Source of the DNA: Aliivibrio fischeri ES114
GTDB lineage: Bacteria > Pseudomonadota > Gammaproteobacteria > Enterobacterales > Vibrionaceae
Direction: 5' to 3' (one strand)
NCBI RefSeq assembly: GCF_000011805.1
Contig: NC_006840.2
Length of the DNA: 32,000 nt
Within the stretch, counting starts at the first letter, position 1. Each line of letters opens with the position of its first letter. A model generated the notes under the pieces. That model was not told the DNA's origin. It saw nothing but the letters and a program-made list of their open reading frames with translations, and ran no database searches. A program made the translations under genes and the position numbers. Below are positions 4,426 through 18,956 of the stretch, piece by piece.

Positions 4426-4452
4426 CCATTACCCTTATTGAACCTAGATACT

Positions 4453-4486
4453 AAAGAGCCAACCTAAATTTGTCGGCTCTTTTTTA
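4453..4486 (+). terminator. Rho-independent terminator after the NOX-like gene
   Basis: agagccaac (4455-4463) pairs with gtcggctct (4472-4480) with one mismatch, then ttttt. The U-tract is good only for the plus-strand transcript. Confidence 0.6.
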
Positions 4487-4504
4487 TTGAAAAACTTGTG
4501 AATG

Positions 4505-5284
4505 CTACGCCGCAAACACTACAGGGAAATTCAACGTAGGGTGAGCTTGCACTAAGGTTTTGTGTCCATAAACATTCTCTATCATTTTTGATGTTATCGC
4601 CTCCCATGGTGCTCCGTCTGCTTGCAGCTTTCCATCTTGAAGAACAATGACTCGATCAGAGTATTGTGCCGCCAAATTTAAATCATGCAGTACCACAATA
4701 ACCGCAGCACCTTCGCTCGCTAACTCTCTTGCTAATTTTAATGTATTGTGTTGATGCGAAAGATCTAACGCAGATGTTGGTTCATCTAACATCACGATCT
4801 TCTGCTGATGTTGGCTTACTTGGGTCAGCACTCGCGCTAAATGAACACGTTGCTTTTCACCACCAGATAGAGAGGGGTAGGCTCTTTCTGCTAAATGCTT
4901 TATTACCGTTTTTTGCATCATGTTCGATGTAATTTCTCGTAATGCTTGATTGGATAACGATAATGGCAACCCTCCAAGTTCTACCACTTCATTTACATTA
5001 AAAGCAAAAGAGAGGGTACTGTGCTGAGGGAGAACCCCAAGTCGTTTTGCTAGTTCGTTACCATCCCATTGATCTTTTGCTTTTCCAAAATAACGAATGT
5101 CATTAAAAGAGGTGATTTCATCACATAACAATTTTAGTAATGTACTTTTTCCGGCACCATTTGGCCCAAGTAATGTGGTCACTTCACCACAACGAAGTTC
5201 TAAGTTAATGTCATCTAAAATTATTTTAGAACCAATGCGATAAGAAATGTTGTTGGCTGAGATAGCTAATGAAGAAAGGCTCAT
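4505..5284 (-). CDS. hutD: Heme ABC transporter ATP-binding protein
   Basis: Walker A GPNGAGKST, ABC signature LSGGEKQRV, Walker B IVMLDEPTSALD. It is the last gene of a tonB-exbBD-hutBCD-type operon and shares 1 nt with the upstream permease gene. Confidence 0.88.
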   Translation of the reverse strand: MSLSSLAISANNISYRIGSKIILDDINLELRCGEVTTLLGPNGAGKSTLLKLLCDEITSFNDIRYFGKAKDQWDGNELAKRLGVLPQHSTLSFAFNVNEVVELGGLPLSLSNQALREITSNMMQKTVIKHLAERAYPSLSGGEKQRVHLARVLTQVSQHQQKIVMLDEPTSALDLSHQHNTLKLARELASEGAAVIVVLHDLNLAAQYSDRVIVLQDGKLQADGAPWEAITSKMIENVYGHKTLVQAHPTLNFPVVFAA

Positions 5285-6330
5285 TAAATTTTACCTCGCT
5301 GGGTAAAGAGTAAATACAAAAAGAAAGGCGCGCCAATAATAGCCGTCACGATACCAACAGGCAGTTCAGCAGGGCTAACGGCAACACGGGCAAACATATC
5401 TGCTGCAGTTAATAAAAGACCACCAAGTAATGCTGAAAGTGGTAATAAGGTTTTATGGTTTGGTCCAGATAGCATACGACCAAGGTGAGGGATGATTAAT
5501 CCAATAAACCCAATCATTCCAGATAAGCTAACGGTAATACCAACGCCTACAGCACTTAATATGATCATACGTTTCTTTAATGATTGAACATTAATGCCTA
5601 AATGTTTTGCTTCTGCTTCACCAAGAAGTAGGGCGTTAAGTCCTGACGCATTTTTCATAAATAAAACAAGCAAGGTGATAAGACCAATACCTGCAAGTAG
5701 CAAGTCATTCCATTTTGCACCCGCTAGCGATCCCATAGACCATAACGAGAGATCTCGAAGCATTTGATCATCGGCAATGAAATTCAAATAGCCAATTCCA
5801 GCACCAGATAAAGCGCTAATAGCAACACCAGCGAGTAGCATAACAGTAATTGAGGTACCAAATTTACTGGTACCTAATCGATAGACAATGAGTGTGGTTA
5901 TTGCGCCACCAAGAAAAGCAAAAATAGGAACAGCAGCAAAATTCATAAAAATAGGAAATTGCTGAGCAACGGATGAAAATACTACGATTGCCATTGCAGC
6001 ACCAAGTGCGGCCCCAGCAGATACACCAATGATCCCAGGTTCAGCAAGAGGATTTCGAAATAACCCCTGCATGACAACACCAGAAATAGCCAATATGGCA
6101 CCAACAAGCATACAAAGGATGGTTCTTGGCAGGCGAACTTGATGAATGATCAAATTAATGTGTGCCGGAATTTCAGCGGTTGACCAAGGAATAAGGCTAT
6201 TAAAACTATCACTTAGCGTAATGTTCATTGGTCCTGTCGCAATGGAGCTTACTGCGATAATTAGCAGAGAAAAGCCACTTAACCACAGTAATTTTGAATA
6301 AGAGATGTATTTTAACAACATAATAATCAC
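5284..6330 (-). CDS. hutC: Heme ABC transporter permease (FecCD/BtuC family)
   Basis: A 348-aa polytopic membrane protein with FecCD-type features (..RLPRTL...GAALG..). It lies between the periplasmic binding protein gene and the ATPase gene. Confidence 0.88.
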   Translation of the reverse strand: MIIMLLKYISYSKLLWLSGFSLLIIAVSSIATGPMNITLSDSFNSLIPWSTAEIPAHINLIIHQVRLPRTILCMLVGAILAISGVVMQGLFRNPLAEPGIIGVSAGAALGAAMAIVVFSSVAQQFPIFMNFAAVPIFAFLGGAITTLIVYRLGTSKFGTSITVMLLAGVAISALSGAGIGYLNFIADDQMLRDLSLWSMGSLAGAKWNDLLLAGIGLITLLVLFMKNASGLNALLLGEAEAKHLGINVQSLKKRMIILSAVGVGITVSLSGMIGFIGLIIPHLGRMLSGPNHKTLLPLSALLGGLLLTAADMFARVAVSPAELPVGIVTAIIGAPFFLYLLFTQRGKI

Positions 6331-7179
6331 TTAAGGGTAAAGAAGGGTATTCAAACGAGCAGCCTCATCAAGTGTTGCTAAGCCAAGGCCACCGACGAGT
6401 GCTGAGCCATCAATACCAATAATTTGTTTATTAATACCAGCAGGTGTGGAGGCTAAGGTTGGAATCGATTCGATAATTTTATCAATGCCTTTTAACTTCT
6501 TGATACTACGGTTGCTGACTAAAACAACGTCAGGTTGCATTGAGATCATGGCTTCCATTGAAATAGGTTTAAACGATGATATAGATGAGCTTGCAGGGTT
6601 ATTTGCTCCTGCTAAATGGATCAATTCATCCATTGTTGTATCACTGCCAGCCACATAAGGGGCTCTGCCTTCATGTAATAAAAGGTAAATGACTTTTTTT
6701 TGCTTCGCTTTACTTGGAATACTACTGTTTAGTAATGCGACCTTTTTATTTACTTGATCCTTGATCGCTTCTGCTTGCGATTGATGCTGAGTAATAGAGG
6801 CAATTTCGTCAATACGATTTAATAAACCTTGAACTGTTGGTGTGGTGTTTACGATATTCACTTTTACATTCGATTGAGAAAGCAAATCTAGTGTACTTTG
6901 AGGTCCCATTTCGTTGGAACCAATAATTTGTGTTGGTTGTAAGGCTAATAACCCTTCTGTCGATAATTGACGGTGATAACCAATTTTAGGTAAAGACTGT
7001 GTCTGCGGCATTTTGCTCGTTACATCAACGGCAACAAGAGAGTCTTCTGCACCTAGTGCATAAATTAACTCCGTAACGGCACTTCCAGCACTAATAATAC
7101 GCTCTTGTGCTGTACTAATGGATGAGAATGAAAGCAATGCTATAGCAAAGAAAGAGGAGGTAAGTTTAGAATTAATCAT
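6331..7179 (-). CDS. hutB: Periplasmic hemin-binding protein of the ABC transporter
   Basis: It has a signal peptide (..LLSFSSISTAQE). The fold type looks like a cluster-A periplasmic binding protein (RIISAGSAVTELIYALGA). Its start overlaps the exbD stop as ATGA. Confidence 0.85.
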   Translation of the reverse strand: MINSKLTSSFFAIALLSFSSISTAQERIISAGSAVTELIYALGAEDSLVAVDVTSKMPQTQSLPKIGYHRQLSTEGLLALQPTQIIGSNEMGPQSTLDLLSQSNVKVNIVNTTPTVQGLLNRIDEIASITQHQSQAEAIKDQVNKKVALLNSSIPSKAKQKKVIYLLLHEGRAPYVAGSDTTMDELIHLAGANNPASSSISSFKPISMEAMISMQPDVVLVSNRSIKKLKGIDKIIESIPTLASTPAGINKQIIGIDGSALVGGLGLATLDEAARLNTLLYP

Positions 7180-7595
7180 GATTTATTTTCGTCCATTAAA
7201 ATTTGAGTTGCTTTAATATTGTTATCTTGTAAAAAGGCCAATAATTTCACCATATGCTGAATTTCAGCGGTTTTATCTGAGGCAATAACCACTTGAAAAT
7301 CAGGTTTACTTTTTACTTTTTGTAGTAATGCGTTAGTAAAAGAAGGCCAAGTAGAATAAGAATGACCATCCAAACCCCAATATGGCGGTTGTTCTAATAT
7401 ATTGATGGTAAAAGACTTACTGTCTACGTCACTTACCGATTCGGTATCCGCTGTCGGTAAGCTCACTTCTAAAGATTGAAGTTTCACGGTAGCGGTGAGT
7501 AATAAAAAAACCATTACGATGAAAATAATATCGAGTAAAGGGGTCAGATCAGGCTGAATGGACTCTTCAGAAGTGAAAGAAGGTGACTTAATCAT
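7176..7595 (-). CDS. exbD: Biopolymer transport protein ExbD
   Basis: A 139-aa protein with an N-terminal DLTPLLDIIFIVMVFLL membrane anchor typical of the ExbD/TolR family. Its 4-nt overlaps with exbB and hutB suggest translational coupling. Confidence 0.88.
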   Translation of the reverse strand: MIKSPSFTSEESIQPDLTPLLDIIFIVMVFLLLTATVKLQSLEVSLPTADTESVSDVDSKSFTINILEQPPYWGLDGHSYSTWPSFTNALLQKVKSKPDFQVVIASDKTAEIQHMVKLLAFLQDNNIKATQILMDENKS

Positions 7596-8275
7596 GCATT
7601 CACCTTGATGATTTTATGTTGGATGTTCTCACTCATTGAATCATTTGAGCTAAATACACCTTCAATCCACAAATTAGTGTAATTTAATGAATGCTCTAAA
7701 CGTGACAAGATACGATCAGCCCATAAGCCTAGAAGTTGTGAGCTTGCGATAGCAGGTAAGGCAATGATCAAACCAATTGCCGTTGTACGCATTGCTAACC
7801 CTAAACCATCAGCCAGAATATTTGGTGTGATAGAACCCGTTGTTGCTGCTACATCTTTAAACATATCTATTAAGCCAAGAACCGTACCTAATAAGCCGAG
7901 TAATGGGCTGATCATGCCAATAAGAGCTAAAAGACGTAATCCAGAACGCAATTGATGGCGCTTTTCTTGAAGCCATAACCCTGCAACATCTTCTCGTAAT
8001 CCTTTTTCAAAATCACGATGAGCAAGTAGCATGGCATTGCCTTTTGCAGAGAGAGCACGGCGTTTTTTCAATTCTTGAATAAAGGAGTGAATACCTTGTG
8101 TATCGTCTTTTTCTAATTGATTTAGCGTCGACTGTATTTTTTTATGAGAACAGCCAGAAAAAAGTAAAAGCTGAATGGTTCGTTCTAATAACAAGGCAAG
8201 AGTGAGTAATGAGCAGCCTAATAGCGGTAGAGCCATAATGCCAAGTTGCGAATATAAGTGTGAAAAGTTAAGCAT
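7592..8275 (-). CDS. exbB: MotA/TolQ/ExbB proton-channel protein ExbB
   Basis: A 227-aa protein with three TM segments and the conserved LLGLLGTVLGLIDMF segment. It lies between tonB and exbD. Confidence 0.88.
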   Translation of the reverse strand: MLNFSHLYSQLGIMALPLLGCSLLTLALLLERTIQLLLFSGCSHKKIQSTLNQLEKDDTQGIHSFIQELKKRRALSAKGNAMLLAHRDFEKGLREDVAGLWLQEKRHQLRSGLRLLALIGMISPLLGLLGTVLGLIDMFKDVAATTGSITPNILADGLGLAMRTTAIGLIIALPAIASSQLLGLWADRILSRLEHSLNYTNLWIEGVFSSNDSMSENIQHKIIKVNA

Positions 8276-8296
8276 AGTTAAATCCGGTATAACTGA

Positions 8297-9061
8297 TTAA
8301 TTTAGTGAAAATCTGACAGGGATCTGCACTCGGTGTGCAATCGCTTGGCCATTGATAACTTGAGGTGAAAATTGCCAATCACGAATCGCATTAAGAGCGG
8401 CTTCATCGAGAACTTGTGCGCCAGATGAGGTGATTAACTCTTGTTTAATTTGTTTTCCGTTTTCATTTAGCCAAATTTCATATAGCGCAGTACCTTCAAT
8501 GCCTTTACGTTGCGCGATGCGAGGGTAACGTGGTGCATTAGGACGCTTTAAGAAATTCGGTTTTTGGACTAATTGTGGTTTTTCTGTTGCCCCTGATTTA
8601 GAAGCAACAGGTTTTGCTGTTGACTCTTTTTCTACAGGTTTGTCTGTTTTCTTAGCCGTTTTAGTTGTTGGCTTAGTTTCTGCCTTTTCTTTAAGAATCT
8701 TTTTTTCTGGTTCAATTGGCTTTGAAATCGTTGGTTTTTTTACCATTTTCTTTTTTGGTTTAGGCTTTTGCTTAGATTGTACGGGTTTCTTTTTCACCAC
8801 TTGTTTTTGAACTGTTTTTTCAACTGTGGTTTGTTGCTTTGGTTGTTCTTTCGGTTTTGTTACCTCATTTTTTTTCGTTTGTACTGACTGAGGAGTAGGA
8901 ACACTTGGTGCGACAAACTGGATGTTTACTTGTGATGAAGTACTACCGGTAGGCATAGCAAAGGCTTTTTTTTCAGGAACAGACCAAATAAGCGCGGTAT
9001 GAATAGCTAATGAAATACCAGCTGCAGCTAGATAACGAAAGTTCAGCACGAATGTCTCCAT
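8297..9061 (-). CDS. tonB: Energy transducer TonB
   Basis: It has an N-terminal anchor with the S-x3-H motif (SLAIH), a long Pro/Lys-rich spacer (KPKEQPKQQ..KPKPKKK..), and a C-terminal TonB_C-like domain (YPRIAQRKGIEGTALYEIWL). Confidence 0.9.
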   Translation of the reverse strand: METFVLNFRYLAAAGISLAIHTALIWSVPEKKAFAMPTGSTSSQVNIQFVAPSVPTPQSVQTKKNEVTKPKEQPKQQTTVEKTVQKQVVKKKPVQSKQKPKPKKKMVKKPTISKPIEPEKKILKEKAETKPTTKTAKKTDKPVEKESTAKPVASKSGATEKPQLVQKPNFLKRPNAPRYPRIAQRKGIEGTALYEIWLNENGKQIKQELITSSGAQVLDEAALNAIRDWQFSPQVINGQAIAHRVQIPVRFSLN

Positions 9062-9089
9062 TTAATTCAGTACTTTTTAAGATGACAAC

Positions 9090-9154
9090 ATTATAAACAA
9101 AACGATAATGAGATCAATTATCAATTGCATTCTCATTAAAAAATACTTTATGAT
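9090..9154. promoter_or_regulatory. Divergent tonB / hutW promoter region with a Fur box
   Basis: GATAATGAGATCAATTATC at 9104-9122 matches the 19-bp Fur consensus GATAATGATAATCATTATC at 15 of 19 positions. On the minus strand, -35 TTGATC (9112-9117), a 16-nt spacer and a perfect -10 TATAAT (9090-9095) serve tonB, and the Fur box overlaps the -35. On the plus strand, TTGCAT (9125-9130), an 18-nt spacer and TATGAT (9149-9154) serve hutW. Confidence 0.7.
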
Positions 9155-9205
9155 GTAAAAAGAAGCAAAACTCTTTGAAGTAACGAGTTAAAAAGAATTG
9201 AAATC

Positions 9206-10582
9206 ATGAGAACAGAAATTGACTTAAATCAGCTACCTATTTCACTTGTCGGTGAAAGTACACCAGAGCCATTGCTGTATGCTTTTCAAAGAAAAGCATC
9301 CGCTCATGCTGGGGGAGGCGCAATACCAATCTCGGCGGATTTGTTTAATGAGCGCTTTTCTTCCGTTTCATCGGAAACCACACAGCTCAGTAAACATCGT
9401 TGCCTTTACGTTCATATCCCTTTTTGTCGTGTGCGATGCACTTACTGTAATTTCTTTCAGCACGCTTCAAGCAAGCAACTAGTACAAGAATATTTTGATG
9501 CCTTATTAGTTGAGTTGAAATGGAAAGCACAGCTCGCTTGGACTCAAGCTGCGCCATTTCATGCGGTATATATTGGTGGTGGAACGCCTACGGATCTTAC
9601 TGCAGATCAAATTGAACAATTGGGCAAAGCCATTCGCTCTCAGTTCCCATTAACCCCTGATTGTGAAATTACGCTAGAAGGGCGAATTAACCGTTTTGAT
9701 GAAGAGATGTTTGATAAGTCATTAGAAGGTGGCTTTAATCGTTTTTCATTTGGCGTACAGAGTTTTAATACAAAAGTAAGACGCTCAGCCAAGAGGCTTG
9801 ATGATAAAGAGTATGTATTACGTCGTATTCAAGAGTTAAGTGATTCAGAGCAAGCGCCCATTGTGGTTGATTTACTTTATGGCCTTCCTTATCAAACCTC
9901 CGAGATCTGGCAACAAGATCTCAACGATTTTTTAGAGACAAACGCACATGGTGTTGATCTTTATCAGCTGATCGAAATGGGCGGAACTCCTATGAAAGGC
10001 GTGATTGATAAAGGCAAATTGCCACAACCCGCATCAACCGAAGAAAAAGCCTATATGTATAAATATGGTGTGGAGTTCATGAACAAACATCACCTTAATC
10101 GCTTGAGCGTTAATCACTGGGCGCGAAGTAATCGGGAAAGAAGCATCTACAACAGTTTAGCTAAAACCACCGCAGAGGTATTGCCAGTGGGGTGTGGTGC
10201 TGGTGGTAACCTTGGCGGTGTAGGCATTATGCAACATCGCACGTTAGACGCCTATATTCAGTCAATTAAAGCTCAACAAATGCCGATTGCAATGATGACA
10301 CAATCCGCTTCTTCAGCAGGGTTATTCTCAATGATTAAAGCAGGGTTTGATCGTGGTGTTCTATCAAGAAAATCACTATTGCAGCAGACGTCAGAGGATG
10401 TCTATCAATACTTAATGCCACTATTTAAACAGTGGCAAAACAATGGATTAGTTAAGGTTAATGCCGATTATTTAAGTTTAACGTTAGCGGGTGAATTTTG
10501 GGCAGTGACTTTAGCACAAAGTGTGATATCCGCTTTATCAATGACGAACAAACAGCCTGTTTTTAATGAACATGCCGCATAA
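9206..10582 (+). CDS. hutW: Radical SAM heme-utilisation protein (HutW/ChuW family, HemN-like)
   Basis: It carries the CxxxCxxC radical-SAM motif (CRVRCTYCNF) and HemN-like downstream segments (YIGGGTPT). It is divergent from tonB and followed by hutX and hutZ. Confidence 0.85.
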   Translation: MRTEIDLNQLPISLVGESTPEPLLYAFQRKASAHAGGGAIPISADLFNERFSSVSSETTQLSKHRCLYVHIPFCRVRCTYCNFFQHASSKQLVQEYFDALLVELKWKAQLAWTQAAPFHAVYIGGGTPTDLTADQIEQLGKAIRSQFPLTPDCEITLEGRINRFDEEMFDKSLEGGFNRFSFGVQSFNTKVRRSAKRLDDKEYVLRRIQELSDSEQAPIVVDLLYGLPYQTSEIWQQDLNDFLETNAHGVDLYQLIEMGGTPMKGVIDKGKLPQPASTEEKAYMYKYGVEFMNKHHLNRLSVNHWARSNRERSIYNSLAKTTAEVLPVGCGAGGNLGGVGIMQHRTLDAYIQSIKAQQMPIAMMTQSASSAGLFSMIKAGFDRGVLSRKSLLQQTSEDVYQYLMPLFKQWQNNGLVKVNADYLSLTLAGEFWAVTLAQSVISALSMTNKQPVFNEHAA

Positions 10583-11102
10583 ATTTAATCAATATAATAA
10601 GAGTATTCCAGTGAATAAACACGTTATCGAATTATTAGAAAATGACCCATCATTATTACCAAGTGATATAGCTAAGCAACTGTCTATTAGTGAAGTCGAA
10701 GTGGTTAAATCATTACCTAAAGAGATGGTGACTATGGTTTCTGGCCTGAAAACCCAAGAGATTTTAGAAGGGCTAGTAGGTTTTGGTGATGTAACAACCA
10801 TCGTACATTCATTTGGTTCTATCTTTGAAGTTAAAGCTCCATTTCCAAAAGGGAAAATAGCGCATGGTTATTATAATCTTATGGGGCGAGAGGGGCAGTT
10901 ACACGGTCACTTAAAATTAGATTTAATTCAAGATATCGCATTAATTAGCAAACCGTTCAGAGGAACTGAAAGTCATTACTTTGGCTTCTTTAATCATGAC
11001 GGGCATTCCGTATTTAAGATCTATTTAGGTCGAGATAAAAAGCGCCAACTTATTCCTGAACAAGTTGAAGCGTTTAATGTCTTAAAACAAGAATATAAAT
11101 AA
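10566..11102 (+). CDS. hutX: Heme utilisation cytosolic carrier protein (HutX/ChuX family)
   Basis: A 178-aa protein positioned between hutW and hutZ, overlapping the hutW 3' end by 17 nt. The call rests mainly on conserved gene order. The exact start (10566 or 10572) is uncertain. Confidence 0.7.
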   Translation: MNMPHKFNQYNKSIPVNKHVIELLENDPSLLPSDIAKQLSISEVEVVKSLPKEMVTMVSGLKTQEILEGLVGFGDVTTIVHSFGSIFEVKAPFPKGKIAHGYYNLMGREGQLHGHLKLDLIQDIALISKPFRGTESHYFGFFNHDGHSVFKIYLGRDKKRQLIPEQVEAFNVLKQEYK

Positions 11103-11154
11103 AAAATAGTCAGCTCAGCATACAACTCAGCACCAAATTTAAAAGGAAAGAAAA

Positions 11155-11682
11155 ATGAACTCAAATGTTAAGCAGGAAAGATTACAAAATCGTCTTGGCC
11201 CTGAAATTCAAGAGTTTCGTGATTCACGTAAAACCCTTCAATTAGCAACAGTAGATTGCGAAGGAAAGCCAAACGTAAGTTACGCCCCTTTTGTTTTATT
11301 AGAAGATGGTTACTATGTCTTGATCTCAGAGATTGCACGCCATGCAAGAAACCTGTTACAAAACCCTGATGTATCGTTAATGCTTGTCGAAGATGAAGAT
11401 TCATCGAAACAATTATTCGCTCGTAAAAGATTAACGTTTGATGCGACGGCGATTTTAATTGATAGAGAAGAAGCCAATTGGCAGCTGGCGGTTGATGAAA
11501 TGAAACAACGCTTTGGCGATATTATCGACGGCTTGAGTTCGTTGGAAGACTTTAAAATGTTCCGTTTAAAACCCATTCAAGGATTGTTTGTAAAAGGATT
11601 TGGTCAAGCGTTTCAAGTAAGTGGTGATGATCTTGTCGACTTTGTTCACCTAGATGAAGGGCACAAGAAAAGAACTGCTTAA
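11155..11682 (+). CDS. hutZ: Heme utilisation/degradation protein HutZ (pyridoxamine-5'-phosphate-oxidase-like split-barrel family)
   Basis: A 175-aa protein with a PNPOx-like N-terminus (LQLATVDCEGKPNVSYAPFV). It is the last gene of the hutWXZ unit, and an AAGGAAAG Shine-Dalgarno lies upstream. Confidence 0.8.
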   Translation: MNSNVKQERLQNRLGPEIQEFRDSRKTLQLATVDCEGKPNVSYAPFVLLEDGYYVLISEIARHARNLLQNPDVSLMLVEDEDSSKQLFARKRLTFDATAILIDREEANWQLAVDEMKQRFGDIIDGLSSLEDFKMFRLKPIQGLFVKGFGQAFQVSGDDLVDFVHLDEGHKKRTA

Positions 11683-11716
11683 TTCCAGCTACATAACATC
11701 AATAGAATTTAAGACT

Positions 11717-11742
11717 AAAGCTCAATATTTTGGGCTTTTTTT
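11717..11742 (+). terminator. Probable terminator after hutZ
   Basis: aaagctca pairs with tgggcttt (one mismatch) around a 6-nt loop, followed by a T-run ending at 11742. Confidence 0.5.
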
Positions 11743-12063
11743 GTATCTGGAATACCATATTAATTGTAGTAAATTACGGGGCACTCTAACTTGTTAAAAT
11801 GCTTGAAAACTTCGTTAGCATTTTTGATTATAAAATTGCAGAACATGTATTTATTGTGATTGGTATCATATCTCACTCGAAAAAGTAGCAAACAGAATAA
11901 GTGACCAATAATTTTGGCATGAATTTTAGTTTGATTGATTTTCAAGCGTGGAAGTGCCGTTGATCGCATATTTTTTCACCAAATTAGGAACTAAATATTA
12001 ACTTGATATCATTCAGTGTGAATTTTACTAAGTAACTGATTAATCTATTAATTAAGGGCTGAG

Positions 12064-14127
12064 TTGACCATGCAGGATGCTAATCAATCAAAGTTTGAGT
12101 TGGATGTAACCACGGTAGATATACCGCTTCAAGTCTATGAATTTACTGGTGAAGAAAAAATAGGTGAAAGCTATCAGTTTGAAATCACCTTCATTTGCGA
12201 AGACCCAGATCTTATTTTAGAACAGTGGCTACAACTGCCTGCTCGATTAAGTATCTGTGGGGATAATGTAAATAGCGATTCTAATACTCGGTTTGTTCAT
12301 GGTGTTATTCAGTCTATGGAACAAATGAGTACATCATTTAGATTCAGCACGTATCGACTGTCATTAGTTCCAGTATTTTCTCTGTTATCACTTCGTCATA
12401 ATTATCAGATGTTTCAGCAAAAGCCAGTGCATGAGATCATTTCAGAGGTTTATTCTCAAGCTGGTATTTTAAATCATCATTATGATATAGAACTTCATCA
12501 TACTCATGAGAATCGAGATTATTGTGTGCAATATGGTGAAACCGATGCGCAATTTGTGCAACGTTTAATGTCAGAAGAAGGATTAATTTCCTACTTTGAA
12601 CATACAGAGTCGCAATCTAAATTAATTATTTCAGATGGTAAAGAAACACACACTAATCTCCCTGAACTTGAATTTATACCTGAAAATGGCATGGTTCAGG
12701 AAAGTGATGTTATTTATTCTTTGGCTAAAGAACAGAACATTCAAACCGGTAAATATGCAATAAAAGATTATGTTTTTCAGCAACCAAAGCAAATGATTAA
12801 CGCTGAAAAGAGTACAGAGAAAGTAGAAGATACTGCGAGTGAAGAGGCGTTAGAGTGTTACGATTATCAAGCATTAAATCAAGCCAACCTTTATCTTGAA
12901 AGAAAACGCACCAATCAAATCGTATTACGTGGAGAGAGCGACAGTCCACAATTAACACCAGGCTATTTTCAGCCTATATCAAACCATCCGATAGAAGAGT
13001 GGAATACTAATTGGTTAATTACTTCAGTGAATTATGAAGGGAGACAACCGCAAGTGCTAGAAGAACTGGCAGAAGGAACCTCTCATTTTGAATCTCGCTT
13101 TCATTGTATTCCTTGGTCAGTTCCTTATCGTTTAGCAAAAATAGAGAAACCGCGCATTCATAATATTGATACTGCAATAGTAACGGGTCCTGAGAATGAA
13201 GAGATCTATTGTGATGAATATGGGCGAGTAAAAGTGCAATTTCATTGGGATAGAAATGGCCAAGCGGATGAGAAAACAAGTTGTTGGCTTCGTACCTCAC
13301 AAGGCTGGGCTGGTAATCAATACGGTCAGTTTGTATTGCCAAGAATAGGACACGAGGTGATCGTTAGTTTCATTCAGGGTGATCCCGATAAACCCATCAT
13401 CACCGGTTCACTGTATAACGGGGATAATAAACCGCCGTATCCATTGCCAGAGCATAAAACACGAAGCACATTTAAAACATCAAGCTCTATTGGTGCAGAT
13501 AATTTTAATGAATTACGTTTTGATGATAAAAATGCGTCAGAGCAGATCTATATTCATGCAGCGAAAGACATGGATAGTCAAATTCAAAACAACCGTACTA
13601 ATGAGATATTTAATGATGATCACTCTGTTGTGCATCATGATCAATTTCATCAAGTAACCAAAGATAATTACCTGACTGTGCAATCAGATAATTTAAGCTC
13701 AATTAAAGGTGACGCACACCAGCAAGTATCAGGCTCTGTTCAACAAAAGATCCAAGGCAGTCGGCTTGAACAAATAGGCACAGAGTTACACATTAAGGTG
13801 GGTAATAAAGCGGTCCTTGATGCTGGCAGTGAACTGACCATCACTACAGGCAGTAGCACAATGAAGTTAGATTCTGGTGGTATTCATTTACTTGGAGCGG
13901 CCATTGACTTAAATAAGGGCGGCAGTCCTGGAAGCGGTAGTGGATATGCAGGTATTACAGCTACACAACCTATTATGAAGCAGAGTGAAACGGCAGGCAG
14001 CGCGGCTGAAATCGCAACGGCCTCTGAGTACACAAGAAGTAAAATTAATGCTGCTCATCAGATAGAAGCACTAAAGACATCGGATCCTGTTTGTGAAGAA
14101 TGTGAACAAGAGCAGGAACAAGAATAA
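12064..14127 (+). CDS. vgrG: Type VI secretion spike protein VgrG
   Basis: It has a gp27-like N-terminal half and a gp5 OB-fold with beta-helix (VKVQFHWDRNG...SCWLRTSQGWAGNQYGQFVLPRIGHEVIVSFIQGDPDKPIITGSLYNG..NFNELRFDDK). The C-terminal region ends in a Gly/Ser linker and an acidic Cys-containing tail. The likely start is ATG 12070, since the track starts at TTG 12064. Confidence 0.92.
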   Translation: MTMQDANQSKFELDVTTVDIPLQVYEFTGEEKIGESYQFEITFICEDPDLILEQWLQLPARLSICGDNVNSDSNTRFVHGVIQSMEQMSTSFRFSTYRLSLVPVFSLLSLRHNYQMFQQKPVHEIISEVYSQAGILNHHYDIELHHTHENRDYCVQYGETDAQFVQRLMSEEGLISYFEHTESQSKLIISDGKETHTNLPELEFIPENGMVQESDVIYSLAKEQNIQTGKYAIKDYVFQQPKQMINAEKSTEKVEDTASEEALECYDYQALNQANLYLERKRTNQIVLRGESDSPQLTPGYFQPISNHPIEEWNTNWLITSVNYEGRQPQVLEELAEGTSHFESRFHCIPWSVPYRLAKIEKPRIHNIDTAIVTGPENEEIYCDEYGRVKVQFHWDRNGQADEKTSCWLRTSQGWAGNQYGQFVLPRIGHEVIVSFIQGDPDKPIITGSLYNGDNKPPYPLPEHKTRSTFKTSSSIGADNFNELRFDDKNASEQIYIHAAKDMDSQIQNNRTNEIFNDDHSVVHHDQFHQVTKDNYLTVQSDNLSSIKGDAHQQVSGSVQQKIQGSRLEQIGTELHIKVGNKAVLDAGSELTITTGSSTMKLDSGGIHLLGAAIDLNKGGSPGSGSGYAGITATQPIMKQSETAGSAAEIATASEYTRSKINAAHQIEALKTSDPVCEECEQEQEQE

Positions 14128-14981
14128 TGGAAATGCAGTGTTTTGATTCTTTGGTTATTGATGATTTTTCCTCTTTCTACTTGATGCTAGATACCTGTCA
14201 GAGTGTTGATGTATTAAAACAATTATATCAATTAGATACGGTGATTGAGCAAGAGCCTCTTTATTTGTATGAGCCTTGGGATGATATGATATCTGTTTCT
14301 CCTTATTTGGTAAAAGCAACGCTTGTTATTGCGCAATGGTTTGAAAGTCAACGTGGTCAGCTAGACGGTTTCTTATTCAGTTCGGCGTTAGATCTAGAAA
14401 GCCTTGCAGAGCATTTAAGAAGTGTGATTAAGGTTCAGTCGCCTTACGGTTCATCCATCATATTGAAATCTGCGCATTCAGGGTGTGCCAATGTTTTATT
14501 CTCGACAGGAACTGATTGGTATTGGCAACACATTGATGAAGTTTGGCTTCCATATAAAAAGGGATGGGCGCATTACTTATCGCCTTGCTCTGAGATGAAA
14601 AGTGTCAAACCTTATCGTTTAACGGACGAACAATGGGAAGCGTTAGGAGAGTTAGCGACTGAAAATGCCTATGCCTATGTGCTTAATCATGTAGAGCACT
14701 TCTTCCCACATTGTTTAGAAAACGTAACAGATAAACAAAAATGGATTCAGTATTGGTTTGAGGCCGCTTATAGCAGAGGGTTTCAAAATGAATCTGACGT
14801 CTGTCTATTTATGAATGTGATGGGCTATTTGGGAAAAGAAGCGATCACAACCGATAAATATCCAAAAATCACAGAATTGATTTATCAAACATCACAGCAA
14901 ACCCCATCACAAAGAATTAAACAAGCGGCTGATTTGGCCTATCAATATCGTCAATCTATGCAAAAGGATTTACAAGAATGA
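14127..14981 (+). CDS. DUF4123-type T6SS effector adaptor/chaperone (Tap-1/Tec/VasW-like)
   Basis: A 284-aa protein. Its pattern fits my recollection of DUF4123 (FYLMLD..PLY..VSPYLV..GFLFSS..LAEHLRSVIKV). It shares TAATG with the vgrG stop and ATGA with the effector start, the classic vgrG-adaptor-effector order. The domain assignment comes from motif recollection, not a search. Confidence 0.7.
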   Translation: MEMQCFDSLVIDDFSSFYLMLDTCQSVDVLKQLYQLDTVIEQEPLYLYEPWDDMISVSPYLVKATLVIAQWFESQRGQLDGFLFSSALDLESLAEHLRSVIKVQSPYGSSIILKSAHSGCANVLFSTGTDWYWQHIDEVWLPYKKGWAHYLSPCSEMKSVKPYRLTDEQWEALGELATENAYAYVLNHVEHFFPHCLENVTDKQKWIQYWFEAAYSRGFQNESDVCLFMNVMGYLGKEAITTDKYPKITELIYQTSQQTPSQRIKQAADLAYQYRQSMQKDLQE

Positions 14982-17900
14982 GCGAAGAAAACAATGCAGC
15001 CAAGTGTGGCAATAAAAAAGACGCAAAAAACCCAGCGGGGTCTTGCCCTGTAAAGTTTGGCGTTATTGACATTGTTCCAGTTCGTTATGCGATTGATGAT
15101 ATGGATGATGAAGAGAAAGAGCAGAAAAACCCATTACTTGATACCCATAAAGGTTACGGCTTTTTTGATGTTGCTCATTCAAAATATACATTAAGACAAT
15201 TAAGAGACGGTTGGCTTTACGTTTATAGTAATAAAGATAACACCTTTCATGAATATCAGGTGAAAGGCTCTCAATTCATTAAAATGGATTGGGGTTCAAA
15301 TGAAGCCGATAAAGCACCAGAAGAGAGAGGGAAAGCAGGAGAGGCTAAAAGCTGTTTGTCTTACTCTAAGAATGACACATTAACCATATCATTTTCTCAC
15401 CAACGTTGGACATGGCGCTTATGTGAACACATGCGTTCAAATACCCAGTGCCGAAACGAATGGATGCGGACGGTCGACTTAAAAACCTATTCAAACACGT
15501 TAGAGATAGAGCACGGTGGTAGCATGCGTGATTTTGTCCATGCCGTTGCTGATATTGGTACGCCAAAGCCCTCCGGTATCTTGTTTGAAAAAACATGTTC
15601 ACCATTAAAAGACGATGATTCTTCTGATGATGAGTTTCATCTCGCTACCCATAAGAAACCCGTATTAGAAACCGATTATCAATGCGATTTATTAGAAAAG
15701 AACAGCGCTTTGTATATCGCACTGGATGATCAGTTGGCTGATATAACGGATCTGTTTTTGAAGTTGTCTGAAACATACGTGCGTATTGTTGAACTACAAG
15801 GAACAGAGGAGGATGAATACAAAGCTCAAATGGCTGAATTAACACGATCTTTAGCAAGGGTAACATTTAGTGATGATCAACTTCCTGAACATATTAAATC
15901 AGATCCAATTGAACGGTTAAAACTAGAAATAGAGATAAATGAGTATTTATACCAAGAGCAAAATGTCCAACAATCTTCAGCATCTTATGAATATCATGTC
16001 GGTGAAGGGGTAGAAAATACCTCATGGTATAAGGCGTTAGAAGCGAAAAAACAAGCAATAAAAGAGCGGTTTAATTTTGAAATTAAAAAGGAACATACTT
16101 CTCAGTGGAAAAGGCAATATCGAAATTTTGATGAAATTCGCTGGAATGAGTTAAATGAATACCTATTTGAACAATACGATAAATTATCAGAAGTAGAAAC
16201 ATTAAATAGTAAGTTAGTTTATCAACATAAAGAGGTAACCGATGCCATTGAACAGATGGGTATCGATCCTATGTATTTCGGAATTGATAACCAAACAGAG
16301 GTTGGTCAACATTATTTATCCGAACTATTTTCACCAATAACCGTTGAGCTTGTTCAATCGGGCTTTAATGTTCCTGAGATTAAGCATTACCTAGAAAAAA
16401 TGTTAGATCTGAGCAAACCAAATAATTTATTAGCATTAGCCCCGTTTGCTTACTCAAAAGAAGTGGTGGATGAGTTAACCACTTACTCAGAGGGTGGCGC
16501 TGCACTTAATATGAGCAGTCCAAGCGACATGATCGCACTGCATACTCGATTATCAGAATTCGATACATTAACAGGTGACGTAAGAATTCAAGATTCTGAT
16601 TGGTACAAGCTGCTTCATATCGATATTAAAGCCGTGTTTGCTGCATTTATTGCCAGTAATAAAGCCAATCCGATACTGCAATTTCGACCTTCGATGGAGA
16701 TGCTCAACGCAATCCAACCTCGAACTAATCAATTCAGTGCACTTAGTTTTATGACTCGCTTCAGAGTTCTCATCATGGAAAATCTAGCAGATAGCAGTTT
16801 TATTGTTTCTGTAAATCCTAATTACCCTAAAGAACTGGCGGCATTTAATAAAAAATATGATCAGTTTTTATTATCTAACAGTAAAACAATGGCTGCGATT
16901 ATTCGGAAAGAACAATTTGCTGCCGTGTTAGTACAAAAAACGTCTGAATTTATTTCAGAGAACATGCCTCAAATGCTTAAGGTTTCACAAAACGGCTCAA
17001 TGTTAAATATAAAAGGAGCAATCAGCAAAGGCGTGGCAGAGAGTTGGGCTGCTTATAAAAATACAAAAGCAGATCTTGTTAGTTTTTCTGAAAGGAAGTG
17101 GAAAGGTTCAGCAAGTTGGAATGGGGTTGTTGCAGCATTAAATATTTGGAATTCAATAACCGTTTTTTCAAATTTACTTCAAAGAAACCAAGAGAGTAAG
17201 ACGACAGAGGAATATAAATCAGTCGCCGCAGAGGTTGTTTATACGGCTTCTTGGACAGTAAATGCGTGCGCCTTGGTATCAAGAGACGCTGCATGGGCTG
17301 AAGTGATGAAAGATAAAGATTTATTGAAAAAATTTAAAAAAGAAGCTATCGGAATAAGACCTGAGTTAGTCAATAAGTTTATTAACCTAACTAAGCTCGT
17401 TGCTGTTACTGGGTTAATCGCCAGTGTGTCTGAAATTTATTATGTCTATAAACGGTTAGATAGTCCTCTTTTATCAAAAGAAGAAAGGATGGCAGAGATT
17501 CTAAAATCAGGTTCATTAGTAGGCCAAGCATTTATTTATTCTACTCAATTAATATCATGTTTTATGAATGGAGCCATTGGTGCTATTTTTGCTCCTTGGA
17601 TGGTTATAGGTTTGGTTATTTTTGGTGTAATTTATATTGCTGCAACGGTATTCATTAATATGTTTAAACGAACTGATATGGAGTTGTGGTTAGTGCAATC
17701 CATATGGGGAGTAAAGATGGCTAAGTGGTCACCAGAAATTGAATTAGTTAACTTGCAAAATATATTAAATAAACCAGTAGTCCAGATAAACACTGGAATA
17801 GTTAGAACGTATCAGTCAATTTCTGATTCAGACAAACAATGGACATTAACAATTGAGTTACCTGATTACTTATCTGATAAATGGTTTGGAATTAAAGTGA

Positions 17901-18238
17901 TTAAAAGCACATCTAAAAAAGCAATAAAACATTATAATTTCATTGGAAATAAAGAAGTGAGTCAATCAGAAGTTGAAGTCAACTTCACTAAAGTAAACAA
18001 TGATAATAATTGTTATCAAATGAAGATTGAACGGAACCATTCAGAAGATATTTCTAATATAACTATTTATTTAGATGTTTTAGCCAATAGAACACCTCAT
18101 GTGATTTCTTATTCCGGCTTTCAAGGTGGTAGTGGAGATATAAAGCTAAATGTAAATAAGGTCACTTCATTTAATGATTATTCAAAAAAAGAAAATTTAG
18201 ATATGGAGATTGTGAGGTTAAATAATGCTAACTCATAA
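14978..18238 (+). CDS. VasX-family T6SS membrane-targeting effector (1086 aa)
   Basis: The N-terminus carries the VasX_N-type signature (C..CPVKFGVIDIVPVRYAIDD, then YTLRQLRDGWLYVY and ISFSHQRWTW). Strongly hydrophobic helices run from about aa 714 to 896 (WNGVVAALNIWNSITVF.., KLVAVTGLIASVSEIYYVY, GAIGAIFAPWMVIGLVIFGVIYIAATVFINMF). Its size is almost the same as V. cholerae VasX (1085 aa). It lies directly downstream of vgrG and a DUF4123 gene. Confidence 0.75.
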   Translation: MSEENNAAKCGNKKDAKNPAGSCPVKFGVIDIVPVRYAIDDMDDEEKEQKNPLLDTHKGYGFFDVAHSKYTLRQLRDGWLYVYSNKDNTFHEYQVKGSQFIKMDWGSNEADKAPEERGKAGEAKSCLSYSKNDTLTISFSHQRWTWRLCEHMRSNTQCRNEWMRTVDLKTYSNTLEIEHGGSMRDFVHAVADIGTPKPSGILFEKTCSPLKDDDSSDDEFHLATHKKPVLETDYQCDLLEKNSALYIALDDQLADITDLFLKLSETYVRIVELQGTEEDEYKAQMAELTRSLARVTFSDDQLPEHIKSDPIERLKLEIEINEYLYQEQNVQQSSASYEYHVGEGVENTSWYKALEAKKQAIKERFNFEIKKEHTSQWKRQYRNFDEIRWNELNEYLFEQYDKLSEVETLNSKLVYQHKEVTDAIEQMGIDPMYFGIDNQTEVGQHYLSELFSPITVELVQSGFNVPEIKHYLEKMLDLSKPNNLLALAPFAYSKEVVDELTTYSEGGAALNMSSPSDMIALHTRLSEFDTLTGDVRIQDSDWYKLLHIDIKAVFAAFIASNKANPILQFRPSMEMLNAIQPRTNQFSALSFMTRFRVLIMENLADSSFIVSVNPNYPKELAAFNKKYDQFLLSNSKTMAAIIRKEQFAAVLVQKTSEFISENMPQMLKVSQNGSMLNIKGAISKGVAESWAAYKNTKADLVSFSERKWKGSASWNGVVAALNIWNSITVFSNLLQRNQESKTTEEYKSVAAEVVYTASWTVNACALVSRDAAWAEVMKDKDLLKKFKKEAIGIRPELVNKFINLTKLVAVTGLIASVSEIYYVYKRLDSPLLSKEERMAEILKSGSLVGQAFIYSTQLISCFMNGAIGAIFAPWMVIGLVIFGVIYIAATVFINMFKRTDMELWLVQSIWGVKMAKWSPEIELVNLQNILNKPVVQINTGIVRTYQSISDSDKQWTLTIELPDYLSDKWFGIKVIKSTSKKAIKHYNFIGNKEVSQSEVEVNFTKVNNDNNCYQMKIERNHSEDISNITIYLDVLANRTPHVISYSGFQGGSGDIKLNVNKVTSFNDYSKKENLDMEIVRLNNANS

Positions 18239-18956
18239 AGATATAGATAATACAAACAAAATAGAAACCATGAGAATGGCCTTATATAACGAAGAAGTGC
18301 TTTATGAATATGAAACCATCGAGCATCAATATTTGGGATATTTTGCTGGTGTTGGTTTTTTTAGTGTTATGAGTTGGATGTTATATGACTTTAGTCAAGA
18401 TATGCTAGATACAGGTGGTGTGGTGGCATTTAGTTTACTTACCATTTTCATGACATTGTTTTTTATCTTTTTTGGTTCTGCAGACATAAAGCGGATTTAC
18501 AAGTTTACCAAAAACGGAATATTAACCGAGCAGGCAGATGTGGTACCAGAGTACGCTTATCAATGCATACGAATGATAGGTCGAGTGGGTGTTGTTGTAT
18601 GTTTAGTTGCCGTTGTTTTTGTTGGCCCTATGGCGTTCGTTGGGGCAGGGGCCAGTGCATTACTCTCATTCAAACTGGTTAACTTTAGGCTGAAACCTAT
18701 GATGTTTGAAACTTTGTATTTTGAGGAGTCTGTGATAATAAAGTCTTCAAAAGCAAATTATGTATCAATACTTCCTAATGCAGATTTATTAGTTTCAGGG
18801 AATGGTTTTATCAGTAATGGTAAAAACATTAATGAAATTTTCAATACATTAAGGGAATTCTATCCAAATGGTTATTTTTATGAGGTAGAGGAAGAAGATG
18901 ATATATATTCCCATTATAAATATAAAGAGTTCTTACATCCAGCAGGTCAGGATTGA
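18225..18956 (+). CDS. Putative polytopic membrane immunity protein 1 for the VasX-like effector
   Basis: It overlaps the effector 3' end by 14 nt and has a GAGG Shine-Dalgarno 8 nt upstream. It has 3-4 predicted TM helices (YLGYFAGVGFFSVMSWMLY, VVAFSLLTIFMTLFFIFFG, VGVVVCLVAVVFVGPMAFVGAGASALLSF). The immunity role is inferred from position. Confidence 0.6.
   Translation: MLTHKDIDNTNKIETMRMALYNEEVLYEYETIEHQYLGYFAGVGFFSVMSWMLYDFSQDMLDTGGVVAFSLLTIFMTLFFIFFGSADIKRIYKFTKNGILTEQADVVPEYAYQCIRMIGRVGVVVCLVAVVFVGPMAFVGAGASALLSFKLVNFRLKPMMFETLYFEESVIIKSSKANYVSILPNADLLVSGNGFISNGKNINEIFNTLREFYPNGYFYEVEEEDDIYSHYKYKEFLHPAGQD

Follow-up and report, generated by a model that had tools for sequence, protein, structure and literature searches.

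What kind of toxin does the gene VF_1231 of Aliivibrio fischeri ES114 encode, and which of the two genes that follow it confers immunity? The locus lies within a 32,000-nucleotide (nt) stretch of contig NC_006840.2, hereafter the window, in which an uninterrupted open reading frame (ORF) of 1086 amino acids (aa), running from ATG to stop, occupies positions 14978-18238 of the plus strand. An exact-sequence look-up identifies its product as VF_1231 (WP_011261847.1), which RefSeq names "T6SS effector BTH_I2691 family protein" (T6SS, type VI secretion system) and UniRef names "Toxin VasX N-terminal region domain-containing protein"; the same look-up identifies the next two ORFs downstream as VF_1232 and VF_1233. 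An earlier note on this DNA had proposed that the ORF encodes a VasX-family effector whose hydrophobic C-terminal region is likely to form pores or disrupt membranes. Here, we describe an analysis that yielded the family membership and domain layout of VF_1231, the gene order around it, and the allele structure of the locus. VF_1231 is a member of the VasX/BTH_I2691 family and displays every testable defining feature of that family except the optional immunoglobulin (Ig)-like C-terminal fold.

This assignment was already known. The databases label the protein BTH_I2691 or VasX_N, the auxiliary clusters and toxin alleles of Vibrio fischeri were described by Speare et al. 2018 (PMC6130350), and the family, its mechanism and two structures have been published, so that naming the family adds nothing. 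Not described in the literature that we searched are the junction of exchanged alleles at the border of the N-terminal MIX domain, the structure of the immunity arrays, and the co-variation of patches in the membrane-inserting domain with the immunity gene. As of a 2023 review, no V. fischeri T6SS effector had been functionally characterised (PMC9972734). VF_1231 is a well-supported effector candidate in this squid-symbiosis model, and its locus offers natural effector/immunity chimeras for locating the immunity specificity of VasX-type pore toxins, which the structure papers left open.

Family membership and domain layout of VF_1231

The proposal of a VasX-family effector is borne out by family models, by alignment to VasX itself, and by the fold matches and gene order described below. 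The earlier note had held that a lack of homology to VasX_N would tell against its proposal; positions 1-153 of the 156-position Pfam VasX_N profile align with aa 23-170, scoring 102.8 bits where the cutoff is 27 (E=2.4e-29). The NCBIfam BTH_I2691 model NF041559 reaches 172 bits, with a cutoff of 150, over aa 31-928 and over 12-855 of its 858 positions, and both scores thus lie above the curated cutoffs. A single collinear BLASTP alignment to a Vibrio cholerae VasX representative covers aa 1-982 with 33% identity (E=1e-175), and many of the 460 homologues found carry the names VasX or BTH_I2691. Between ES114 and another strain, the ratio of nonsynonymous to synonymous substitution rates (dN/dS) is 0.06-0.09 across aa 1-750, which indicates that the ORF is under purifying selection.

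The protein begins with a MIX domain. All three published MIX motifs, shhPhR, hRxGhhYhh and hhF/YSxxxWS/T (PMC12909789), are present in VF_1231, as DIVPVR (aa 31-36), LRDGWLYVY (aa 75-83) and ISFSHQRWT (aa 137-145), and their residues are invariant or nearly so across 76 homologues. The strings by which the earlier note had recognised the domain, namely CPVKFGVIDIVPVRYAIDD (aa 23-41), the second motif, and SFSHQRWTW (aa 138-146), occur as quoted, and in the 76-sequence family alignment they sit on invariant or nearly invariant columns (C23, P34-A38, D40, T71-Y81, R143, W144 and R147). In the AlphaFold2 (AF2) model, aa 31-210 are beta-rich, with values of the predicted local distance difference test (pLDDT) mostly between 85 and 94. 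The extreme N-terminus, MSEENNAAKCGNKKDAKNPAGS, is hydrophilic, with a mean Kyte-Doolittle (KD) hydropathy of -1.48 over aa 1-22, and no hydrophobic core of a Sec signal peptide precedes the MIX strand, as judged by hydropathy only.

Beyond the N-terminus the earlier note had recognised no similarity to VasX, and it had left room for the membrane-active part being a distinct variant. VF_1231 was split into four parts, each of which was compared by BLASTP with the 120 best homologues. The MIX domain, aa 261-710 and aa 711-930 each match 120 of the 120 homologues at E<1e-3, and the best matches outside the protein's own allele class, called class A below, reach about 1e-50 for the body and 1e-28 to 1e-36 for the hydrophobic region, at 29-35% identity. 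Since the helical body and the hydrophobic region are related to the family, and VasX itself aligns as far as aa 982, the worry that only the N-terminus resembles VasX falls. The membrane-active part is an ordinary family member, and the C-terminal beta domain the idiosyncratic part.

The middle of the protein, left unassigned in the earlier note, is the published 'scaffold' or alpha-helical domain, and by analogy with Ptx2 and Tke5, two family members of known structure, it may include a sensor or flexible region. Its description as helical agrees with the AF2 model; its description as acidic holds only mildly, with 64 D/E against 50 K/R residues in aa 261-710 and 19 against 7 in aa 171-260.

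A cluster of hydrophobic segments toward the C-terminus is present as claimed. KD windows of 19 residues score at least 1.0 at aa 716-735, 748-768, 796-825, 845-863 and 851-899, and with the last of these delimited to 861-897 they define five hydrophobic or amphipathic segments within aa 711-930. A single stretch, 861-897, is strongly hydrophobic: its 19-residue KD maximum of 2.71, compared with 1.69 +/- 0.29 in 1000 shuffles, lies about 3.5 standard deviations above them, and its 37-residue window scores 1.97 compared with 1.0 +/- 0.23. The maximum window score was used in place of counts of hydrophobic windows, which are a poor statistic when set against shuffles. The earlier placing of aa 714-896 at nt 17117-17665 is arithmetically correct, but the quoted string of some 45 residues, GAIGAIF...INMF, comprises 32 (aa 865-896), and the larger figure matches only the looser boundary of 851-899.

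Long helices are predicted by AF2 within aa 711-930 at 743-777, 795-827, 834-862 and 873-896. Several polar positions of this putative membrane-inserting domain (TMD) are conserved in the family alignment (N722/N725, G812/A815/E819 and K843/Q850/Q857), the last three at heptad spacing on one predicted helix, and we infer that such positions are candidates for a pore-lining face. Just downstream, W910 and G911 are invariant and W904 is 99% conserved. HMMER aligns aa 869-913 with Tke5 779-827, a region covering the fifth predicted transmembrane segment of Tke5 (781-803).

For the last 156 residues (aa 931-1086), BLASTP found no convincing sequence relative outside class A among the 120 homologues. 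Nine to ten beta strands are predicted here in both the full-length and the domain-only AF2 models, and the region probably corresponds to the Ig-like 'receptor-binding' region of the family. A C-terminal Ig-like beta-sandwich is optional in the VasX family and is absent from some members.

The full-length AF2 model, built from the 76 homologues (mean pLDDT 75, predicted TM-score 0.64), arranges the protein as a beta-rich N-terminal domain (strands at aa 29-249), an all-helical part (252-930) and a second beta-rich part (934-1079). AlphaFold modelling had been named in the earlier note as one way of checking its proposal, and in a Foldseek comparison with the PDB the model gave just two significant matches, Ptx2 (9qpv, 6e-14) and Tke5 (9r8g_A, 3.6e-13), both full-length and at a probability of 1.00; the third-ranked match had an E value of 8e-3. 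Weak matches (E 0.008-0.1) were mostly to Kir potassium channels, with some to STATs and further beta-sandwich proteins of the Ig-like kind. Both Kir channels and STATs pair long helices with a beta domain that is Ig-like, and the likeness of the VF_1231 TMD and C-terminal domain to them is probably a topological resemblance only. The coordinates of these and other features are collected in Table 1.

Table 1. Features of the VF_1231 locus, in window coordinates
Feature	Position	Strand	Basis
VF_1231, VasX/BTH_I2691-family T6SS effector, 1086 aa	14978..18238	+	family models, BLASTP, AF2, Foldseek
N-terminal MIX (VasX_N) domain, aa 1-260 of VF_1231	14978..15757	+	Pfam, AF2, motifs
Alpha-helical 'scaffold' region, aa 261-710	15758..17107	+	all-helical in AF2; BLASTP
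Putative membrane-inserting domain (TMD), aa 711-930	17108..17767	+	hydropathy, AF2, conserved residues, HMMER
Strongest hydrophobic stretch, aa 861-897 (37 aa), candidate helical hairpin	17558..17668	+	KD windows compared with shuffles
C-terminal beta-rich domain, aa 931-1086, allele-class-specific sequence	17768..18235	+	AF2 strands; BLASTP; Foldseek
Allele-replacement junction, around codon 264	15758..15775	+	blastn against ES401
Mosaic variable segment, aa 776-900	17303..17677	+	dS, Mantel test, patch alignment
vgrG (VF_1229 by position), T6SS spike, without C-terminal toxin extension	12064..14127	+	Pfam, NCBIfam
DUF4123 (Tap/VasW-type) adaptor	14127..14981	+	Pfam DUF4123 2.9e-22, 79.6 bits (cutoff 25.8)
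VF_1232, TsiV2-family membrane protein type I, predicted cognate immunity	18225..18956	+	homology, position
VF_1233, TsiV2-family membrane protein type II, predicted orphan immunity	18986..19699	+	homology, position
Terminator-like hairpin and T-run, 3' of hutZ	11717..11738	+	sequence scan
GC-rich hairpin and T-run between convergent VF_1233 and TonB-dependent receptor gene	19716..19737	-	sequence scan

Immunity genes, allele exchange and a mosaic segment

Five genes follow one another on one strand, in the order vgrG, DUF4123 adaptor, VF_1231, VF_1232 and VF_1233, and the reading frames from vgrG to VF_1232 abut or overlap. The DUF4123 ORF lies directly against the vgrG stop codon (14127) and shares 4 nt with the start of VF_1231, the start of VF_1232 overlaps the 3' end of VF_1231 by 14 nt, and a gap of 29 nt separates VF_1232 from VF_1233. 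The last two genes encode paralogues that are 31% identical, each with two to three strongly hydrophobic segments, which in VF_1232 include aa 60-89 and 112-149. By BLASTP both match the V. cholerae gene downstream of vasX, VF_1233 at 39% identity (5e-38) and VF_1232 at 31% (8.5e-15). Neither has a match in NCBIfam or, at E<=0.01, in the local Pfam, from which the TsiV2 model PF27447 is apparently absent; precomputed Pfam matches assign PF27447 to genes of 243 and 237 aa at the same positions in other assemblies with an identical effector. Their nature as TsiV2-family membrane proteins fits the test of the downstream genes for neutralisation that the earlier note had proposed, but they are probably not equivalent, one looking cognate and the other orphan.

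The distinction between them rests on a comparison of alleles. At the same locus, strain ES401 (L006) carries a different effector behind an unchanged vgrG and adaptor. DNA identity between the two strains is 98.6% (blastn) across vgrG, the adaptor gene and the MIX-encoding part of the effector gene, up to nt 15768. The two effectors are 92-100% identical per 50-aa block to aa 250, 56% identical in aa 251-300, and 10-40% identical beyond, so that the body of the ES401 effector shows as low an identity to VF_1231 as does V. cholerae VasX. This junction falls where the MIX domain ends (36-258 in Ptx2, 17-238 in Tke5), and toxin body and immunity gene are exchanged as a module exactly at the border between the MIX and helical domains.

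Two types of immunity gene occur at the locus, with only about 26-30% identity between them: type I (VF_1232-like) and type II (VF_1233-like). We compared the arrays at six loci (L001, L006 and L012-L015). The array reads I-II in ES114, I-I-II in both GNP61 and L013, I-II-I-II in L014, and I-II-I-I-II in MJ11, and array sizes range from one intact and two frameshifted genes in ES401 to the five genes of MJ11. A type-I gene stands first after six of the six class-A effectors examined. After the class-B effector of ES401, the first immunity gene is of type II, 66% identical to VF_1233, and it is followed by frameshifted remnants of a type-I gene and of a VF_1233-like gene. This pairing of type I with class A and of type II with class B argues that VF_1232 is the cognate immunity gene of VF_1231 and that VF_1233 is an orphan. 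Genes of the VF_1233 type are 97% conserved between ES114 and GNP61, and MJ11_i2, an immunity gene of MJ11, shows 82% identity to the predicted cognate gene of ES401. At the A. sifiae locus (L015, 9667-11528), 1.9 kb without a called gene splits the immunity array.

The exchange of effector modules and the accumulation of orphan immunity genes have precedents in V. cholerae (Unterweger 2014; Kirchberger 2017; both as cited in PMC6130350). As in that species, vgrG, the adaptor and the effector N-terminus are conserved, the body and immunity gene are swapped, and displaced genes persist downstream, some of them as pseudogenes; the arrays match the "sequential displacement" picture drawn for V. 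cholerae. In contrast to the V. cholerae exchange, both A. fischeri alleles are VasX-type, one putative pore-former replacing another that is 10-40% identical per 50-aa block, and a finer mosaic lies inside the TMD. Two 'auxiliary toxin 1' alleles were reported by Speare et al. 2018 (PMC6130350) and may represent the VF_1231 locus. Some A. fischeri strains carry an extra VasX-type effector, P0049 (33% identical), together with TsiV2-family genes at an unrelated locus (L010 and L011, 8001-12710), where no vgrG or DUF4123 gene lies alongside.

The finer mosaic is seen among six class-A strains, whose effectors are 97-99% identical over aa 261-775 and 73-95% identical over aa 776-900. Their differences cluster in three patches (aa 781-806, 837-856 and 866-886), which one strain combines as a mosaic. 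Between ES114 and GNP61, dS is 0.58-0.97 in sub-windows of aa 776-900 and 0.10-0.21 elsewhere. Positive selection was rejected as the cause of this variability because dS is raised as much as dN (dN/dS 0.11-0.43), and the segment is therefore a recombinational mosaic that carries imported divergence. Identity in aa 776-900, a segment chosen after its variability was seen and compared in six strains only, tracks the identity of the immunity gene in first position (r=0.70 and p=1/720 in an exact Mantel test with all 720 permutations). Four other effector regions gave r values of -0.25 to 0.21 that were not significant, although these regions vary less and so afford less power. Physical linkage could add to the correlation, yet the intervening aa 901-1050 are uncorrelated.

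In the same six strains the region equivalent to the Ptx2 'sensor' (about aa 310-410) is nearly invariant, whereas the immunity genes differ by up to 28%, which suggests that TsiV2-type immunity reads the membrane-inserting domain. For the Ptx2-Pti2 pair, AlphaFold3 modelling had suggested the 'sensor region' as the recognition site. We put forward only tentatively, as something that may well prove wrong, the idea that these natural chimeras map TsiV2 recognition and that specificity is set by the patches at 781-806 (a charged connector), 837-856 (an amphipathic helix) and 866-886 (the hydrophobic hairpin) and not by the 'sensor region'. If this were true, TsiV2-type immunity would recognise the inserting or inserted TMD within the membrane. 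A corollary, if true, would be that joining the MIX domain to toxin bodies with no more than 10-40% identity costs no function, even though its motifs are packed against the body in the solved structure of Tke5.

Proposed mechanism and competing explanations

The closest characterised system is V. cholerae VasX (VCA0020)/VasW/TsiV2 of auxiliary cluster 2. The VasX representative (P0034) and VF_1231 share the same length, 1086 aa in each, the same Pfam and NCBIfam families, and the same hydrophobic C-terminal cluster, and both loci have the order vgrG, DUF4123 (295 aa and in the same position in V. cholerae), effector and TsiV2-family gene. The two systems differ in several respects. The V. cholerae locus is headed by hcp and the ES114 cluster is not; ES114 has two immunity paralogues and V. 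cholerae one; the last ~100 residues of VF_1231 have no detectable similarity to V. cholerae VasX; and the ES114 locus, unlike the vasX cluster, is enclosed by a haem-uptake island of chromosome I. The T6SS island with which lethal strains are active is, moreover, missing from the strain that carries VF_1231.

Ptx2 of Pseudomonas aeruginosa (9qpv) and Tke5-Tap3 of Pseudomonas putida (9r8g) share the domain order of VF_1231, with a MIX domain, helical scaffold, hydrophobic TMD and beta-rich C-terminus. In the two structure papers, Ptx2 is divided into a MIX domain, a sensor-bearing scaffold, a TMD and a C-terminal domain of Ig-like type, and Tke5 into a MIX domain, an alpha-helical region with five TMHMM-predicted transmembrane segments, and a beta-rich Ig-like region. 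The last hydrophobic segment of VF_1231, together with the W..L...WG motif that comes after it, aligns with Tke5 779-827 and Ptx2 949-996. Structurally aligned identity to the two proteins is about 12%, and sequence similarity lies mainly in the MIX domain. The immunity partners of VF_1231 are TsiV2-type, and TsiV2 goes unmentioned in the searched text of the Ptx2 and Tke5 papers.

Secretion, depolarisation and the identity of the immunity gene are proposals, and the mechanism that follows is drawn from these homologues. The DUF4123 adaptor encoded upstream would bind the MIX domain (aa 1-260) and load VF_1231 onto the VgrG spike, whose gene heads the operon, and a T6SS would drive the spike into an adjacent Gram-negative cell. 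Once in the periplasm of that cell, the helical body would free the buried hydrophobic helices (aa ~711-930, chiefly the 861-897 hairpin), which would enter the inner membrane and form an ion-conducting channel, and the membrane potential would be lost. The C-terminal beta domain probably aids membrane or receptor binding. VF_1232, apparently translationally coupled to VF_1231, would be the cognate membrane-embedded TsiV2-type immunity protein, and VF_1233 would be an orphan TsiV2-type gene, a remnant of or a shield against another effector allele.

Experimental support for this mechanism comes from family members. VasX, which TsiV2 neutralises, is toxic from the periplasm only and collapses the membrane potential (PMC3857813). 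Ptx2 disrupts the membrane potential (delta-psi), and mutations in its TMD lower toxicity; Tke5's alpha-helical region is toxic alone and is neutralised by its immunity protein, and the beta region of Tke5 binds model membranes. The family assignment and the membrane-active role predicted in the earlier note are favoured by all of the tests that were run (family models, VasX alignment, Foldseek and gene order). Taken jointly, it is very probable that VF_1231 is a VasX/BTH_I2691-family cargo effector acting by the mechanism set out above, with VF_1232 as its cognate and VF_1233 as an orphan immunity gene.

Several observations weigh against this interpretation. Global TM-scores between the model and the Ptx2 and Tke5 cryo-electron microscopy (cryo-EM) structures are low (0.32-0.37, root-mean-square deviation ~29 A), pLDDT falls below 50 at aa 672-716 and in parts of the C-terminal domain, and the domain-only model of the C-terminus has a pLDDT of 65, a best Foldseek E value of 0.011, and weak matches that are almost all to Ig folds. 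The low TM-scores are expected if AF2 models an extended state of the TMD; for Ptx2, the authors of the structure note that AlphaFold gives an extended TMD whereas cryo-EM shows it buried, and the long helices predicted for VF_1231 may reflect such a state. Our literature search for VF_1229 to VF_1233 found no paper. Moreover, the T6SS2 island, used for killing by lethal V. fischeri strains, is absent from ES114 (PMC6130350), and T6SS1 of V. fischeri has no known activity (PMC9972734), so that ES114 may never deliver the toxin.

These last facts bear on a different account, in which ES114 keeps the locus mainly as an immunity island, with VF_1231 as an intact but undeployed passenger and with the selected function lying in VF_1232 and VF_1233, which would protect the strain from VasX-type toxins of T6SS2-positive neighbours in the squid light organ. 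ES114 retains two of three auxiliary clusters without the T6SS2 island, and immunity needs no functional T6SS (Speare et al., PMC6130350); T6SS1 lacks hcp and vgrG, and no activity of it has been seen (PMC9972734); and arrays grow to five genes in other strains, with the VF_1233 type closely conserved between ES114 and GNP61. We regard this account as possible but rather doubtful, for no break occurs in the ORFs of the effector, the adaptor or VgrG, and the effector is under strong purifying selection over most of its length, at a locus where unused genes do decay, as the two frameshifted immunity genes of ES401 attest. Lethal strains still kill ES114 (PMC6130350), so any protection is incomplete, and the account concerns use in one strain and not the nature of the protein. 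It is improbable that VF_1231 acts mainly on eukaryotic cells, such as squid host cells or grazing protists, instead of on bacteria, an activity first reported for V. cholerae VasX against Dictyostelium. VasX is needed to kill D. discoideum and binds eukaryotic lipids (as cited in PMC3857813 and PMC6267618), and A. fischeri lives in an animal host; however, membrane immunity genes follow the effector and diversify in number and sequence with it, a signature of conflict between bacteria, and the recently characterised family members Ptx2, Tke5 and Bte2 are all antibacterial. A dual antibacterial and eukaryotic role may apply. We give almost no credence to the notion that the hydrophobic C-terminal region is a colicin-type pore domain fused to a VasX_N delivery domain. 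The older literature credited VasX with 'homology to colicins' and a phenotype like that of pore-forming colicins (PMC3857813), but a search for such domains, suggested by the earlier note, detected none by sequence or by fold, whether in Pfam (E<=0.01), among PDB sequence matches (E<=1) or in the top 50 Foldseek matches, and the cryo-EM papers call the scaffold and TMD folds unlike known proteins.

Operon boundaries, regulation and genomic setting

The product of vgrG, which the gene caller starts at the ATG at 12070, matches Pfam Phage_GPD (1.1e-70), Gp5_trimer_C and Phage_base_V, and NCBIfam TIGR03361 TssI/VgrG at 588 bits. The terminator-like hairpin after hutZ suggests that a separate promoter, in the 380-nt spacer that follows, serves the vgrG operon, and the hairpin at 19716-19737 is likely the end of the operon. 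No sigma-54 site of the consensus TGGCAC-N5-TTGC with at most two mismatches occurs in the hutZ-vgrG spacer, and the window total of 25 compares with 27.4 in shuffles; the sequence TGGCAT-N5-TTAG at ~11915 was considered and, with three mismatches, not counted. A sigma-70 scan was uninformative (26 sites compared with 40.5 in shuffles).

The cluster sits in a haem-uptake region that comprises hutBCD/exbBD/tonB, hutWXZ and a TonB-dependent receptor gene. Co-regulation of the vgrG operon with haem uptake was considered and is not supported, since the spacer upstream of vgrG contains no Fur box scoring 13/19 or better and a terminator-like hairpin follows hutZ. The best Fur-box matches of the window are at 22026 (16/19), in the haem receptor promoter, and at 9104 (15/19), in the tonB/hutW spacer. 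Overlapping Fur-box-like matches (14/19) lie at 17996-18020, inside the 3' end of VF_1231 and ~225 nt upstream of VF_1232; the window holds six matches of at least 14/19, compared with 2.3 in shuffles, and this one may be due to chance. In V. cholerae, an internal tsiV2 promoter lies within vasX (Miyata 2013).

On a larger scale, positions 3100-22000 of the window hold a ferric-reductase-like gene, the haem genes, the T6SS cluster and the receptor gene, between rplT (2542-2895) and pheS (22272-). The genes thrS-infC-rpmI-rplT-pheST-ihfA form one contiguous block in Escherichia coli, and the ~19-kb stretch between rplT and pheS therefore looks like an insertion. GC content falls to 33-36% across the exchanged portion of VF_1231 and its immunity genes (window 16000-20000), compared with ~39-44% in the flanks.

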